Origin: Dehalococcoidia bacterium
GTDB taxonomy: Bacteria; Chloroflexota; Dehalococcoidia; UBA2979
NCBI GenBank assembly: GCA_963667465.2
Contig: CAXXDN010000002.1
Span: 1,536,001-1,600,000 of the forward strand
Reading direction: 5' to 3'
Length of the DNA: 64,000 nt
The notes under the pieces are model-generated. The model did no database searches, was not told the origin of the DNA, and saw only the letters and a list, made by a program, of their open reading frames with translations. The translations under genes and the position numbers were made by a program. Below are positions 45,571 to 50,840 of the stretch, piece after piece; positions within the stretch are counted from its first letter, which is position 1; each line of letters starts with the position of its first letter.

Positions 45571-46647
45571 CTAGCGCGCCGGCGCGGCGCCGGGCCTCGC
45601 CCTGCCGCGCACTCCTCGCGCCGATCGCGGGAGGCTGGTGAGCAGCAGCTCGAGGGCGAGCACGTCCGCATAGCGGCCCGTCTTGACCGCATGGTCCGCC
45701 GCCTCCACCGCGCGCAGCGCGCGCTCGGCAGCGGGGCGGCCGATCGTCTCCGCCTGCGTGACGAGGCGGCCGAGCGGGTAGGGGTGCGTCACGCCGGTGG
45801 CGCGGCCGATCTCCTCGCGGCTCGCGCCCTGCTCGATCAGCTCGGCGGCGCGGATCAGATTGCGCAGCTGGCGCGCGATCAGCGCCTGGAGGCGGCCGGG
45901 ATGCTCGGCGCCACCCTCGATCAGCCCGCGCAGCCGCAGCAACGCGCTCGCGGTCCGGCCCTCGACGGCGTCGTCGACGAGCGCGAACACGTCCTCGTCG
46001 CGCGCGGCCGTGGTGAGCAGCTCGACGTCGGCGACGCTGACGGGCCGCTCCCCGGCGAGGCGCGCGAGCTTGTCCAGCTCGTTGCTGAGCGCCCAGAGGT
46101 CCGCGCCGAGCAGCTGGCTGAGGCGTTCGGCGGCGGCAGGCTCGATCTCCGCGCCGATCCGCCGCGCGCGCTCGATCAGCCAGGCGGCCACCTCGTTGCC
46201 GCCGCGGCCGTAGAGGCGCATCGCCTCGAACTGCTGCACGTCGGCGCCCTCGAGGGCGCGCAGCGCGCGCAGCAGCGGCGAGCGGCCGAGCGTCGTCCGC
46301 GCCTCGCGGGTGGGGGCTGGCTCCAGCAGCACGAGGTGGTTGGTGTCCGGCAGCACCGGCAGTGCGTCGAGCAGCGGCTGCCATTCGTCGGCGACGCCGC
46401 GGCCCGCGCCGAGCGAGACGATCAAACCTTCGACCACGATCACGCGCGCGTTGGCGAGGAACGGCACCGTCGAGGCCTGCCCGGCGAGCGCCCCGGCCGT
46501 GAGACCGCGGACGGGCAGCTCCGCGGTGTTGAGATCGAGCATCCCGTCTGTGTCGAGGCGTGCGCGCAGGGCGCGGTAGGCCTCGCGCAGGCGGAAGTCG
46601 TCCGAGTCGCGGTTGGCCTGCGTCGATCCGAGGTAGAGATGCAGCAT
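45571..46647 (-). CDS. holA: DNA polymerase III subunit delta
   Basis: TVPFLANARVIVVE, LGADLWALSNELDKL, DVFALVD, DHAVKTG. Confidence 0.9.
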   Translation of the reverse strand: MLHLYLGSTQANRDSDDFRLREAYRALRARLDTDGMLDLNTAELPVRGLTAGALAGQASTVPFLANARVIVVEGLIVSLGAGRGVADEWQPLLDALPVLPDTNHLVLLEPAPTREARTTLGRSPLLRALRALEGADVQQFEAMRLYGRGGNEVAAWLIERARRIGAEIEPAAAERLSQLLGADLWALSNELDKLARLAGERPVSVADVELLTTAARDEDVFALVDDAVEGRTASALLRLRGLIEGGAEHPGRLQALIARQLRNLIRAAELIEQGASREEIGRATGVTHPYPLGRLVTQAETIGRPAAERALRAVEAADHAVKTGRYADVLALELLLTSLPRSARGVRGRARPGAAPAR

Positions 46648-46662
46648 CGCGTCCGTCCCGGC

Positions 46663-46947
46663 CTAGTCGAGATCCAGCCGCCAGCCGAGCCAGGCGGCGA
46701 TCGTGGTGACCACGAGGACCACGGGGCCCGGCCAGAGCAGCTGCGCGACGAACTCGCCGGTTCCGCCCTCGTCCGCCGTGACCCCGCGATAGAGCGCCCA
46801 GAGCAGCGCGACCGCGATGCCGGGCAGCAGCAGCCACCAGTGGAAGGCGGGCTGGCCGTCGTCGAGTAGCGGCGAGCGCAGCCGTCCGGGCTGCTCCTGC
46901 TGCTCGTCCTCCTCGCCCGCGAGGTCAGCCTGCTGCTCGTCGGCCAT
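46663..46947 (-). CDS. Small two-TM membrane protein
   Basis: Acidic N-terminus, two hydrophobic helices. Confidence 0.65.
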   Translation of the reverse strand: MADEQQADLAGEEDEQQEQPGRLRSPLLDDGQPAFHWWLLLPGIAVALLWALYRGVTADEGGTGEFVAQLLWPGPVVLVVTTIAAWLGWRLDLD

Positions 46948-47131
46948 CGTTCGAGGCGTCCTCGCCGGGGAGCGGCGTGCGCGCGCCCGATGCTACGTGC
47001 GTCGCGGCCCGCTTGCCACTGCGGAGCGCCGCCGAGCGCCGGGCCCTCACCCGTGAGGGGAGCGAGCCGGACCACCCTCGAGCGCTGCGCCTCGAGCGCC
47101 GCAACCGGCACGCGCGCGGGCTGCGGGCGAG

Positions 47132-47212
47132 CCCCCTCACCCCCCCTCTCCCGCCGGGGGAGAGGGGGCCGGACTTCCAACTCGCGCGTCGCGTGCGCCC
47201 CCACCCCGCCCT
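47132..47212 (+). repeat. REP-like tandem array, unit 1 and left part of unit 2
   Basis: CCCTCTCCCGCCGGGGGAGAGGG hairpin followed by GGCCGGACTTCCAACTCGCGCGTCGCGTGCGCCC, repeated at 49897-50005. Confidence 0.85.
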
Positions 47213-47219
47213 AATGGGG

Positions 47220-47425
47220 TTCGACCGGACCCTGGAGCGATCTGGGAGACTGGTCTTGGACCGGCCGGCCGGTGAGCACTGCCCCTCCCCGAGACACTGC
47301 GATCTCCAGGGAGAGACCGTGCCCCGGCTGGTGCGTCCGGGTGGTCCACAGCACTCCTGGGGTGTCGTGCCCGAGAGCACTGGTCCATTAGGCCGTCGCA
47401 GGACCAGCCCGGCAGGTCGCAAACA
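47220..47425 (+). ncRNA. Putative IS110 bridge RNA (ends approximate)
   Basis: Target loop CCCCTCCC (47282-89)/GGGAGAG (47309-15); donor loop CCTGGGGTGTC (47356-66)/CCATTAG (47385-91); each pair separated by a short hairpin. Confidence 0.8.
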
Positions 47426-47455
47426 GCAGCACGAAGCGCAGGAAAGCGAGGCACG

Positions 47456-48679
47456 ATGACCCTCTACGTCGGTGACGACTGGTCCGAAGACCACCACGAT
47501 GTCCAGCTCATGAACGAGGCCGGCGAACGGCTCGCCGCCAGGCGGCTGCCCGAGGGCGTCGCGGGCGTCGCCGTGCTGCACGAACTGGTTGCCGAGCACG
47601 CCTCAGACCCGGGCGCGGTCGTGGTCGGCATCGAGACCGACCGCGGACCCTGGGTCACGGCCCTGCTCGCGGCCGGCTACCGCGTCTACGCGATCAACCC
47701 CCGCTCGGCGGCGCGCTACCGTGAGCGTCACCACCTGGGCGGCGCCAAGTCCGACGCCGCCGACGCGAAGCTGCTCGCCGACCTCGTGCGCACCGACCGC
47801 CACAACCACCGTCCGCTGGCCGGCGACAGCGACGAGGCTGCCGCGGTGCGCATCCTCGCCCGCGCCCACCAGCAGCTGATCTGGGACCGCGTGCGCCAGA
47901 CCAACCGGCTGCGCAACGCCCTCAGGGAGTATTTCCCGGCTGCCCTGCAGGCCTTCCCCAGCCTCGCGCACGGCGACGCCCTGGGCGTGCTGGCGCGGGC
48001 GAGCGAGCCGCGCGAGGCGGCGCGCCTGAGCACGTCGAAGATCCGCTCGGCGCTGCGCCGCGGCGGACGTCAGCGCAACCTCGAGCGGCGCGCCGCCGCG
48101 GTGCGCGACGCGCTGCGCTCCCCGCAACTCGAGGCGCCGCCTGCCGTGAGCCGGGCGTTCGCCGCGAGCACCCGCGCGGCGGTCGCGCAGATCAGCGAGA
48201 TCAACCGTCAGCTTACGGAGCTCGAGGCCGCGCTCACGAGCCATTTTGAGCAGCACCCGGACGCCGCAATCTACCGTTCCCTGCCCGGTCTCGGTGTCGT
48301 GCTCGGCGCCCGGGTGCTCGGCGAGTTCGGGGACGACCCCGAACGCTACGAGTCGGCGAAGTCCCGCAGGAACTACGCCGGCACCTCGCCGCTCACCGTA
48401 GCATCGGGCCGCAAGCGCAGCGTGCGCGCCCGCTTCGTGCGCAACCGCCGGCTCGCCGACGCCGTGGACCGCTGGGCGCTCTGCTCGCTGCAGGCGAGCC
48501 CCGGCTGCCATGACTTCTACCACCGCCGCCGCGCCGCGGGCGACCTCCACCACCAGGCGCTGCGCGCTCTCGGCAACCGCCTCGTCGGCTACCTCCACGG
48601 CTGCCTGAAGGCACGTCGCCCCTACGACGAGGCCACCGCCTGGGCGCACCGCCACGACCGCGAACAGCTCGCCGCTTGA
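47456..48679 (+). CDS. IS110 family transposase/recombinase
   Basis: YVGDDWSEDHHD, GIET, AINP, AKSDAADA (DEDD RuvC-like); SLPGLG, YAGTSPLTVASG. Confidence 0.95.
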   Translation: MTLYVGDDWSEDHHDVQLMNEAGERLAARRLPEGVAGVAVLHELVAEHASDPGAVVVGIETDRGPWVTALLAAGYRVYAINPRSAARYRERHHLGGAKSDAADAKLLADLVRTDRHNHRPLAGDSDEAAAVRILARAHQQLIWDRVRQTNRLRNALREYFPAALQAFPSLAHGDALGVLARASEPREAARLSTSKIRSALRRGGRQRNLERRAAAVRDALRSPQLEAPPAVSRAFAASTRAAVAQISEINRQLTELEAALTSHFEQHPDAAIYRSLPGLGVVLGARVLGEFGDDPERYESAKSRRNYAGTSPLTVASGRKRSVRARFVRNRRLADAVDRWALCSLQASPGCHDFYHRRRAAGDLHHQALRALGNRLVGYLHGCLKARRPYDEATAWAHRHDREQLAA

Positions 48680-48713
48680 CGCCTTAGCACCCTGGGGTGT
48701 CTAACCCGCCGGG

Positions 48714-49896
48714 GAGACCTTTGCGTAATGCCGCCGCGAGGGGCAAAGTGCGGGGGCGGGGGCGAAGCAGCGTGGGGAGTGGCGCCATGCATCGGCGAAC
48801 CGGTCAGCGGTCGCTCGCGGAGGGGTGGATCCCCGAGGAGCTCGGACGCAACGATACCCTCGAGCGGATCGGCGCCGCGCTGGACTGGGAGCGCATCGGG
48901 GCGGTCGTCGACGGGGTGCATGCCGCGCCCCGGGGCAGGCCCGCGTACCCGCCGCTGACGATGCTCAAGGTAATGCTCCTGCAGCAGTGGTACGCGGCCT
49001 CTGACCCGGCGATCGAGGAGGCGCTGCGCGACCGCATCTCGTTCCGCAGGTTCGCCGGCCTGGGCTGGGACGACGGCACACCCGACCACTCGACGATCAG
49101 CCGCTTCCGCAAGCAACTCAGCAGGCACGGCCTCGCGGAGCGCGTGTTCGCCGAGCTGGGCCGTCAACTGGAAGAGCGGGGGCTGCTGGTCAAGCAGGGG
49201 ACGCTGGTCGACGCCACCATCATCGAGGCACAGGCGCGGCGGCCGCCGCTGGGGCGAGGCCCGGGCGCGAGCAGCGAGACCGACCCCGACGCGGCCTGGA
49301 CGCGCAAGGGCGGCGCGGCGCACTTCGGCTACAAGGCGCACATCGGGATGGACGCCGGCTCCGGGCTGATCCGGCAGGCGCTGCTGACGCCGGCGAACGT
49401 GAACGACACGGAGCCGGCGGACCGTCTGCTGGCCGGCGATGAGGCGGCCGTCTACGCCGACAAGGCGTACGACACGAAGGCGCGGCGCGCGCGGCTGAAG
49501 TCGCGGGGGGTCAAGGACCGGATCATGCACCGCCCGAACAAGCACCACCCGGAGCTGCCGCGCTGGCGGCGGCGGCGCAACGCGCTGATCTCGCGCGTGC
49601 GCGCGCCGGTCGAGCAGGTCTTCGGGACGCTGAAGCGCAGCTACGGCTACCGCCGGGTGCGCTACATGGGGCTGGAACCGAACGCAACCGAGCTATGGCT
49701 GAAGTGCACGGCCTACAACCTGAAACGGGCGGTCCGTCTGCCCCCCGCCTGAGGCCTGTCCCGGGGCGGAGTGCGCCCCGGGCACGGTCTGAGGCCTCCG
49801 CCGCGCCCCGCCCCAGGCCGCCAACGGCCCTCGCAGGGCCGCCCGTCGCCCCGGCTTCCCCGGATCTGCCGATTTCGCCAGTTACGCAAGGGTCCC
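48714..49896 (+). mobile_element. IS5 family insertion sequence
   Basis: IRs GAGACCTTTGCGTAA / TTACGCAAGGGTCCC (13/15); direct repeat GCCGGG at 48708-13 and 49897-902. Confidence 0.9.
48787..49752 (+). CDS. IS5 family transposase
   Basis: GRPAYP, PDHSTISRFR, LVDATI, FGYKAH, YADKAY, RAPVEQVFG. Confidence 0.95.
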   Translation: MHRRTGQRSLAEGWIPEELGRNDTLERIGAALDWERIGAVVDGVHAAPRGRPAYPPLTMLKVMLLQQWYAASDPAIEEALRDRISFRRFAGLGWDDGTPDHSTISRFRKQLSRHGLAERVFAELGRQLEERGLLVKQGTLVDATIIEAQARRPPLGRGPGASSETDPDAAWTRKGGAAHFGYKAHIGMDAGSGLIRQALLTPANVNDTEPADRLLAGDEAAVYADKAYDTKARRARLKSRGVKDRIMHRPNKHHPELPRWRRRRNALISRVRAPVEQVFGTLKRSYGYRRVRYMGLEPNATELWLKCTAYNLKRAVRLPPA

Positions 49897-50036
49897 GCCG
49901 GGGGAGAGGGGGCCGGCCTTCCAACTCGCAAGTCGCGTGCGCCCTCACCCCCCGCCCTCTCCCGCCGGGGGAGAGGGGCCGGATCCGCCCTCGCGCGTCG
50001 CGTGCGCCCTCGATGGTTCCGAGGGGGCGTGGGGGA
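49897..50036 (+). repeat. REP-like tandem array, right part of unit 2 and unit 3
   Basis: Continuation of the interrupted unit, then intact CCCGCCCTCTCCCGCCGGGGGAGAGGGG. Confidence 0.85.
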
Positions 50037-50072
50037 CGAGGGGCGCAGCTCCCGGCAGCAGAGGCGCGCGTA

Positions 50073-50840
50073 CTACGGGAAGAGGTCGTCCTCGACGCCA
50101 CGCACGATCTCGCGGGCCGATCCCTCGCCGCGCTCGTAGGGGTAGCCGCGCACGATGACGACCGGGACGCCCTCGCTCTTCGGCATCGAGAGGCCGGCGG
50201 CTCCGGCGATCTCGTCGGCGGGGCAGGGCGTGCTCACGCGCATGATGCGGCCGTCGAGGTCCGGCAGACCCTCCAGCGGGCGCAGCGGGCGCAGGCCCGC
50301 GAGGCCAATCGCGATGTTCGTCTGGCCCGTCCGCCAAGCCCGCCCGAAGGTGTCGCTCACGATCACCGCCAGTCCGATGCCGAGTCGCTCGCGCACGCTG
50401 TCGCGGAAGGCGCGGGCCGAGGCGTCCGGGTCGACCGGCAGCAGCGAGATCAGGTCCGTGCCGCCGACGTTCGAGGCGTCGACGCCGCTGTTGGCGCAGA
50501 CGAAGCCGTGGCGCGTCTCCGTAATCAGCACGCCCTTCAGCTGCCGCACGACGCGCACGGACTCGCGCAACACCGCCTCTGTCTGGCGCGGGTCCTTGTC
50601 CCACGCCTCGGACCACTCGAGCGCGAAGGGCGAGGGCTCGAACTCGTCGAGCGGCAGCACGCGGCCCTCGGCCTTGGAGACGATGCGCTGCGCGACCACG
50701 ATCGCGTCGCCATCGAGGAACGGCGTGCACTGGGCAGCGGCGGCCTCGATCGCGAGGGCGGCGATGTCGTCGCCTTCCTCGACGAGCGGCATCCCGGCGA
50801 CGCCGATCACGCGTACGTCCGGGTAGGAAGGGGCGCTCAC
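50073..50840 (-). CDS. cofE: Coenzyme F420-0:L-glutamate ligase
   Basis: IVSKAEGR, ETRHGFVCANSGVDASN, SDTFGRAWR. Confidence 0.95.
   Translation of the reverse strand: MSAPSYPDVRVIGVAGMPLVEEGDDIAALAIEAAAAQCTPFLDGDAIVVAQRIVSKAEGRVLPLDEFEPSPFALEWSEAWDKDPRQTEAVLRESVRVVRQLKGVLITETRHGFVCANSGVDASNVGGTDLISLLPVDPDASARAFRDSVRERLGIGLAVIVSDTFGRAWRTGQTNIAIGLAGLRPLRPLEGLPDLDGRIMRVSTPCPADEIAGAAGLSMPKSEGVPVVIVRGYPYERGEGSAREIVRGVEDDLFP

Follow-up and report, generated by a model that had tools for sequence, protein, structure and literature searches.

Among described IS110-family insertion sequences, IS621 of Escherichia coli is a close point of comparison: two studies (PMC11208160, PMC11208158) describe an IS110-group layout in which the 3'-side guides of the RNA pair over 4-7 nt with the DNA's top strand. 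Durrant et al. (PMC11208160) report predicted bridge RNAs for 85.7% of the IS110 elements in ISfinder, and a specialist would therefore expect such a system in the element analyzed here. This element lies at positions 47211-48702 of a 64,000-nt stretch of Dehalococcoidia DNA (assembly GCA_963667465.2, contig CAXXDN010000002.1, positions 1,536,001 to 1,600,000; hereafter the window). It is an IS110-group element of 1,490 bp with one CT core counted, composed of a 245-nt non-coding left end, a gene for a 407-aa DEDD/Ser recombinase and a 21-nt right end, and its layout and guide pairing agree with the published descriptions. We are highly confident that this IS110-group insertion sequence, active in appearance, functions in the manner of IS621.

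The core dinucleotide CT stands at both junctions of all ten full copies in the genome (10/10). The termini, CTAATGG on the left and GGGGTGT on the right, are not inverted repeats of each other, and long terminal inverted repeats are absent. Judged at the level of sequence, the recombinase domains, the ends, the core, the RNA loops, the guides and the handshake bases place the element in the IS110 group, and its layout is not that of the IS1111 group. The parts of the window copy, with its flanks, are listed below.

47204-47210 (+): left target flank CCCCGCC of the window copy; pairs with the 7-nt left target guide at 6/7 positions
47211-47212 (+): left CT core dinucleotide; CT flanks both junctions in 10/10 copies
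47213-47455 (+): non-coding left end, predicted to encode the bridge RNA, 245 nt including the core; the target guides make up its variable columns, while the donor loop hardly varies
47456-48679 (+): recombinase gene, 407 aa, recognized by PF01548, PF02371 and profile matches; D8, E60, D100, D103 and S317-G318 are invariant
48680-48700 (+): right end, 21 nt, assigned from the sequence; the last 10 nt are the left donor
48701-48702 (+): right CT core dinucleotide; CT in all copies
48703-48707 (+): right target flank of the window copy, AACCC, which is atypical (CTCCC in 9/10 copies); the junction is seen in contigs of four independent runs

Target sites and guide segments

The genome (2.97 Mb in two contigs, 70.7% G+C) contains ten full copies of the element at about 100% identity, one of which carries a single substitution in the left end, and one partial copy at a contig end. 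A sequence-only reading of the window had called the element intact, and the open frames of these ten near-identical copies bear this out. The insertion site is the left arm of a palindrome resembling repeated extragenic palindromes (REP), ..CACCCCNCC-CT-CTCCC-loop-GGGAGAG... CTCCC stands to the right of the core in nine of the ten full copies and in the partial copy and, with the core counted, matches the guide GGGAGAG 7/7; to the left, the copies read CCCC[x]CC, where x is G in five, C in two, A in two and T in one, compared with CCCCUCC in the guide. Empty sites are left in the genome, 40 of the form CCCCGCC-CT-CTCCC and two with CCCCCCC. Ten insertions in such sites show that the natural target is the left arm of the REP-like palindrome, which agrees with the earlier proposal that the element is aimed at a repeat family of its high-GC host.

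Contigs of four independent DNA runs contain the window copy's insertion with both junctions and 0 differences. These contigs were compared over 46500-50400, where the other joints are cross-matches between REP units, and none of them bridges an empty site over that interval. No word spanning a circle or tandem junction was present in the genome or in any fetched locus (assembled DNA).

Within the left end, AGCACT occurs at 47275-80 and 47350-55, ahead of the target and donor loops, respectively. The donor loop begins with the 11-mer CCTGGGGTGTC (47356-66), an exact copy of the right end at 48691-48701 that has two matches in the 64-kb window against 0.02 expected from shuffles; a GTGC/GCAC hairpin (47367-70 and 47377-80) follows, and then CCATTAG (47385-91), the reverse complement of CTAATGG (47211-17). 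The target loop is built alike: CCCCTCCC (47282-89) agrees with CCCCGCCC (47204-11) at 7/8 positions and is followed by a GAGA/TCTC hairpin (47291-94 and 47303-06) and by GGGAGAG (47309-15), the reverse complement of CTCTCCC. All the strings on which the sequence-only reading was built are in place, and its account of the donor guides, an 11-nt copy of the right end and a reverse complement of the left end, holds. Its target-loop matches hold as well: the right guide matches 7/7 in 9/10 copies, the window copy itself having AACCC on that side, and the left 8-mer is present, although it carries little weight by itself. The latter emerged when positions 8-245 of the left end were shuffled 20,000 times: 11 shuffles contained a right-end 9-mer, 111 the reverse complement of the left end and 862 that of CTCTCCC, whereas 7,964 contained the C-rich left-flank 8-mer with at most one mismatch. 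The left-target match alone is therefore not significant; it gains weight through the other copies and the relatives. All four guide matches jointly occurred in 0/20,000 shuffles. The four guides were assigned as follows.

47282-47290 (+): left target guide (LTG) CCCCUCC, plus CC over the core; same sense as the top strand of the left target, co-varies with left flanks
47309-47315 (+): right target guide (RTG) GGGAGAG, reverse complement of CT+CTCCC; 7/7 with the right flank in 9/10 full copies and the partial copy, co-varies in relatives
47356-47366 (+): left donor guide (LDG) CCUGGGGUGUC; exact copy of 48691-48701, with a G-to-A change that co-varies with the right end in five Actinomycetota relatives
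47385-47391 (+): right donor guide (RDG) CCAUUAG, reverse complement of CT+AATGG; the same in 24/25 left ends

The co-variation of target guides with insertion sites, which the sequence-only reading had named as a check, was examined with 40 further copies, all loci being parsed with fixed anchors and the guide registers being fixed from the alignment. Registers set automatically, with the 3' end of the LTG taken from the hairpin, were wrong for three types and were dropped in favor of the fixed register. In a first set of 49 distinct sites with seven guide types, no other among the 5,040 permutations scored as well as the true assignment of guides. The full set comprised 67 distinct sites and 18 guide types from Dehalococcoidia and Actinomycetota records, the relatives having 67-92% protein identity. 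Here, the elements' own guides pair at 9.65 of 12 non-core positions, compared to 4.29 with the guides of other types (10.44 and 5.77, respectively, if G-U pairs are allowed), and the own guide is the best one in 17/18 types (16/18 with G-U). Random guide assignments reached the observed pairing in 0/200,000 cases, a shuffle statistic that overstates independence because the compared sequences are kin. Two relatives illustrate the relation at both guides: with LTG CAACAAC and RTG GACGTAG the site reads CAACAAC-CT-ACGTG, and with TGTCAGC and CGTCTAG it reads CGTCAGC-CT-AGACG. Another element, with the guide CACGAAG, sits before CT-TCGTG. The left core is CT at 66/67 sites, the remaining one (L167) having TT. 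Across the 67 sites a U in the guide is often opposite a C in the target, and tolerance of G-U may let one guide cover several REP variants. Taken together, the 67 sites and the 18 guide sets found in nature amount to a small table of natural specificities.

The donor side shows a comparable pattern. The LDG reads GGGAUGU in five elements, all of which have a matching right end, GGGATGT or GGGATAT (5/5). An exception is L167, with A in the right end and G in the left donor guide.

Predicted bridge RNA and recombinase

A full structure of the left-end RNA was written by analogy between the two loops and then counted on two left-end alignments. In the close set of 23 left ends, the proposed pairs are 94.0% paired, compared to 29.7-44.9% for slid partners, with five compensatory pairs. 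In the diverse set of 25 left ends, the 43 pairs are 93.7% paired, compared to 28.1-47.2% for slid partners, with 17 compensatory pairs, and 0/500 shuffles of this set matched the observed pairing percentage, cell count or covariation score. RNAalifold, run on the 23 left ends, independently recovered the target loop as a stem, an internal loop and a hairpin. Based on this covariation, the RNA is shown to have the potential to fold into a 5' hairpin followed by a pair of stem-loops that each carry an internal loop. The columns that vary in the alignment are those of the two target guides, with almost no change in the donor loop; the same pattern, a variable first loop and a conserved second loop, is reported for IS621 by Durrant et al. 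(PMC11208160). That the two loops are target-binding and donor-binding, as had been proposed from the sequence, agrees with all of these results: the target guides track the flanks, the donor guides track the right end and the stems are compensatory. An Rfam scan of 46500-50500 at E≤10 matched no bridge-RNA family. The predicted structural parts are the following.

47223-47255 (+): 5' stem-loop (SL1), left-end positions 13-45; outer helix 98.6% paired in alignment A1 and 93.3% in A2, with the predicted transcription start just upstream
47264-47279 (+): outer stem of the target-binding loop, 5' strand, including GCAC of AGCACT; pairs with 47319-47332, 98.6% paired, 6/14 pairs changed on both sides
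47291-47306 (+): inner hairpin of the target loop, GAGA...UCUC; 99% paired, 3/4 pairs compensatory
47319-47332 (+): outer stem of the target-binding loop, 3' strand (GUGC...); from RNAalifold and pair counts
47337-47347 (+): outer stem of the donor-binding loop, 5' strand; pairs with 47401-47412, 80.4% paired because a bulge shifts between sequences, six compensatory pairs
47351-47354 (+): donor-loop closing helix, formed by GCAC of the second AGCACT with GU(C)GC (47395-47399); 100% paired, A-U replaced by G-C in six sequences
47367-47380 (+): inner hairpin of the donor loop, GUGC...GCAC; invariant in 25/25 sequences, and covariation therefore neither supports nor contradicts it

Three relatives (L030 in genome G011, L033 in G012 and L037 in G022) retain the donor loop and the gene but have unrelated sequence in place of the left end's 5' part, target-binding loop included.

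According to Hiraizumi et al. (PMC11208158), once strands have been exchanged, the two bases that follow each right guide on its 3' side pair with the other DNA, a contact termed the handshake. Candidate bases for it were found in both loops. In the target loop they are AC or AU in 25/25 left ends, AU being the form in Actinomycetota. The first handshake base of the donor loop is G with a target C in 22 types and C with a target G in three (L158, L160 and L166). For IS621, PMC11208158 and PMC11208160 also report a promoter at the junction of the excised circle. The corresponding hexamer here, T-CT-AAT, is formed only by the joining of right end and left end, and a box lies 17-19 nt before it in 30/30 distinct right-end/left-end pairs (TTGACN in 28, TTGCCC in two).

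47316-47317 (+): target-loop handshake bases AC; complementary to T and G at donor positions 7 and 6 but not to C and C at the same positions of the target
47392-47393 (+): donor-loop handshake bases GC; the first base co-varies with target position 7
48676-48681 (+): TTGACG, candidate -35 box of the circle-junction promoter; overlaps the stop codon and lies 18 nt before the junction hexamer T-CT-AAT

By analogy with IS621, excision would join the right end to the left end in a circle, and the junction would create a promoter consisting of TTGACG, an 18-nt spacer and T-CT-AAT, from which a bridge RNA of about 190 nt would be transcribed out of the left end. A start about 7 nt downstream of the junction hexamer would put the 5' end of the RNA at the first hairpin and would leave out CTAATGG, which would otherwise pair with the RDG in cis. 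Covariation shows that, in the first loop, GGGAGAG pairs with CT+CTCCC on its top strand; in the second, CCUGGGGUGUC pairs with the element's right end and CCAUUAG with CT+AATGG at its left end. A tetramer of the recombinase would then exchange strands at the CT core, and the handshake bases AC and G would pair with the non-cognate DNA and so aid the exchange. Reprogrammability, activity and the RNA ends are inferred from IS621.

The recombinase itself contains PF01548 (DEDD_Tnp_IS110, E 6.9e-38), the N-terminal RuvC-like DEDD domain, and PF02371 (Transposase_20, E 7.1e-11), the C-terminal Tnp domain, and the residues D8, E60, D100, D103, S317 and G318 are unchanged in an alignment of 16 homologues. 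A single-sequence search of the PDB (phmmer) gave no IS110 match even at E≤10, and a profile was therefore needed to establish the link to IS621. The profile of the 16 homologues matched the IS621 transposase (8wt6_A, 5.7e-18) and the ISCro4 transposase (9t56_A, 1.4e-17, both domains); the matches fall in two stretches, with residues ~155-248 unaligned. In the profile alignment D8, D100 and D103 coincide with the GxD and KxDxxDA motifs of IS621 and S317-G318 with its catalytic Ser-Gly, E60 being locally offset by the aligner. The two Pfam domains, these profile matches and the covariation uphold the proposal that this is an IS110 element with bridge RNA guides. The recombinase is thus beyond pairwise detection from IS621, and yet every RNA hallmark is kept, down to the handshake bases.

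A library search with the protein gave at least 8,000 candidates at E≤1e-5, the few named ones being called 'IS110 family transposase'. Of 18 genomes of the same genus that were searched, eight have relatives at 81-92% identity, and so has one other genus of the family. Those at 67-80% come from records titled Dehalococcoidia metagenome-assembled genomes (MAGs), Acidimicrobiales, Pseudonocardiaceae, Smaragdicoccus niigatensis and a Mycobacterium MAG. One stop codon is present in each of the recombinase frames of L154 (Acidimicrobiales record) and L167 (Mycobacterium MAG record). More distant relatives were also seen: genome G014 has five copies of an element with 33% protein identity, and three loci of the host genome (L013-L015, at G000:C2:27011, C1:460189 and C1:223757) show 71% identity to the recombinase gene over ~125 nt and probably represent a second, distant IS110-family element. 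The only Rfam match above gathering score in 46500-50500 is Ms_AS-4 ('Actinobacteria sRNA') at 48280-48361 on the minus strand (65.1 bits, gathering score 50), antisense to a conserved stretch of the recombinase gene. Ms_AS-4 may represent nothing more than IS110-family coding sequence read in antisense.

Besides the kinship among the compared sequences, several observations weigh against a bridge RNA of the kind proposed. The guide registers needed one adjustment by hand, a 2-nt shift for a 2-nt insertion in the L025 type. Left matches are 4/7 at L025, 1-2/7 at site L032 and, in the fixed register, 1-2/7 in the L131 type, for which a one-base register shift would mend the left match and the handshake base agrees with the shifted reading. 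Within the genome, the guide U at -3 faces an unpairable base at 7/10 sites, and the right flank of the window copy agrees with the RTG at only 3/5 non-core positions. The -10 hexamer of the junction, TCTAAT, is without the usual A at its second position, although the promoter rules of the host may differ. Finally, the minimum-free-energy fold of the left end is no better than that of shuffles (z -0.51, 56/200 at least as stable) and pairs part of the LTG with the RTG. The sequence-only reading had offered folding as a check, with guides lying in paired stems counting as a refutation. The guides do partly pair, but this pairing arises because the target itself is quasi-repetitive (CC-CT-CT-CCC), and the outcome is therefore not diagnostic.

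Other explanations for the left end deserve attention. Its internal copies of the element's ends could be subterminal repeats that act at the DNA level as transposase binding sites, with no guide RNA involved. The LDG is indeed a direct repeat of the right end and the RDG an inverted repeat of the left end, and many insertion sequences carry subterminal binding sites. However, such sites would need neither segments that change with the flanking target across 18 guide types, nor the 17 compensatory base pairs in the stems between them, nor handshake bases that co-vary with the target, which makes this explanation extremely improbable. Alternatively, the left-end RNA could be only a structured 5' leader or a regulatory small RNA, while the protein picks the target via the REP hairpin. 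Most sites are REP hairpins; moreover, a target-encoded stem-loop is reported to add specificity for ISPpu10 (10.64898/2026.03.19.712850), and small RNAs were once proposed to regulate ISPpu9, as recounted in PMC11208160. Yet relatives whose guides differ are inserted at non-REP sites matching those guides (CAACAAC-CT-ACGT, CGTCAGC-CT-AGACG, GGCGTCC-CT-ACCGC), and their targets differ completely although the recombinases are 67-92% identical. We therefore regard target choice by the protein as very improbable.

In the IS1111 group, too, target choice is reportedly RNA-guided, as described in the seekRNA study. Membership of that group, with a seekRNA encoded downstream of the gene, would agree with the shared DEDD recombinase superfamily, but the right end has only 21 nt, the left end has 245 nt and the gene is preceded by both loops, an arrangement that PMC11208160 gives for the IS110 group; the probability of IS1111 membership is virtually negligible. 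The reading as an IS110-group element guided by a bridge RNA from its left end is retained below.

Atypical right junctions and neighbouring sequences

The AA that follows the right core of the window copy is also the pair of bases that follows the core at the element's own left end. In a scan of 99 family genomes, GGGGTGTCTAACCC was found at eight places (window 48703-48704 and L169-L175) in four genomes (one in G000, three in G011, one in G012 and three in G017) and GGGGTGTCTCTCCC at 25 places in the same four genomes, so that CT-AA accounts for 8/33 right junctions. Empty sites with matching left halves have CTCCC in 117 cases and AACCC in none. An earlier count gave AA in 3/18 occupied and 0/117 empty sites (Fisher p = 0.002, with the genomes being kin and not independent). 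Two pairs of the AA places share flanks, one of which looks like a duplication within G011 and the other like one locus common to G011 and G017, and several AA copies are decayed. AA breaks the stem of the REP hairpin and therefore looks derived. For the window copy, the flanking gene of the orthologous locus was found in five relatives, of which G012 is without the REP array and G009 has a different one. Reciprocal CT-CT-TGGGG left ends were not seen with a pattern that is loose and returns mostly noise.

The cleavage scheme published for IS621, as given in PMC11208158, cuts only on either side of CT and does not predict AA. We tentatively consider, as a possibility with less than even chances, that CT-AA is the natural footprint of a non-canonical bridge recombination in which the two core-adjacent bases are converted to the donor's AA. 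Such a conversion could come about by strand exchange or branch migration two bases past the core, or by repair after an excision synapse has been aborted. The same counts could also be explained if rare CTAA sites are strongly preferred, or if copies at such sites are retained for longer.

The REP-like family, ..CCCTCACCCCNCC CTCTCCC-loop-GGGAGAGGG.., occurs in arrays in the window (47040-47210 and 49897-50010) and genome-wide. A variant in which CTAACC replaces CCCGCC one hexamer upstream has about ten occurrences without an insertion sequence. The partial copy of the element (L011, at the end of G000:C2) has the same right flank as the full copy L009 near the start of contig 1 (G000:C1:3265-4756), and the ends of contigs 1 and 2 probably overlap or duplicate one locus. 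Two same-orientation pairs of copies lie a few hundred bases apart, L031/L039 (G017:C4:1226-4134) and L058/L060 (G009:C1:2373794-2376649); in each pair the copies are in neighbouring REP units and the left flank is identical. The fragment AATGGGGTTCGACCAG, which corresponds to the first bases of a relative's left end, stands isolated beside a REP unit near position 401674 of G000:C2 on the minus strand.

An IS5-family element occupies 48712-49896 of the window, inserted in the loop and right arm of the REP unit that holds the window copy. Its open reading frame (48787-49752) contains DDE_Tnp_1 and DUF772. The element is single-copy in the genome, and its ends were placed solely from imperfect inverted repeats, GGGAGACCTTTGCGTAA and TTACGCAAGGGTCCC. 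Its terminal sequence also adjoins IS110 copies in G014 (L032) and G004 (L035).

Comparison with known systems

The element adds one member to an already known class and leaves the understanding of that class unchanged. It may already be catalogued or named; the literature found on Dehalococcoidia and Chloroflexi made no mention of IS110 or bridge RNA, which does not show that the element is unpublished. Its value is twofold: a natural bridge-RNA system is well documented for an uncultured Chloroflexota lineage of high G+C, and annotation gains the lesson that IS110 left ends of this kind can be read directly from sequence.

With IS621, as described in PMC11208160 and PMC11208158, the element shares the IS110-group layout, the CT core and REP-type targets, as well as the succession of 5' hairpin, target loop and donor loop, the handshake bases and a candidate circle-junction promoter. 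Guide polarity is also the same, the 5' guide of each loop reading the bottom strand and the 3' guide the top strand, and so are the DEDD and Ser-Gly catalytic residues. The two differ in size, the protein having 407 aa here and 326-328 aa in IS621, and the left end 245 nt here and 191 nt in the published IS621. They differ further in the RDG, a contiguous 7-mer here and a discontiguous pairing in the IS621 reports, in the conserved (A)GCAC helix that closes both loops here, and in the host, here a genome with 70.7% G+C.

Other members of the family extend the comparison. At the protein level, the ISCro4 transposase (PDB 9t56) belongs to the same family and is as distant from the element as IS621 is; IS622, as presented in 10.1101/2025.05.14.653916, is of the same family as well. 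CazIS110-1 (10.1101/2025.10.25.684509) and the IS621 of the work on half-matches and copy-out (10.64898/2026.08.31.748434) are, from these descriptions, of the same class, and copy-and-paste transposition would fit the ten identical copies. The IS1111 group shares the DEDD recombinase, but its RNA is located in a long right end and its subterminal inverted repeats measure 7-17 bp according to PMC11208160, unlike the arrangement here. ISPpu9 and ISPpu10 of Pseudomonas putida are described as IS110-family elements with several copies in repeated extragenic palindromes or in a conserved intergenic stem-loop, and in this they are like the element of the window. The position of the hairpin nevertheless sets them apart: here the right target forms the hairpin's left arm, which puts the hairpin 3' of the cut site, whereas the gate described for ISPpu10 (10.64898/2026.03.19.712850) is a 5' extension.

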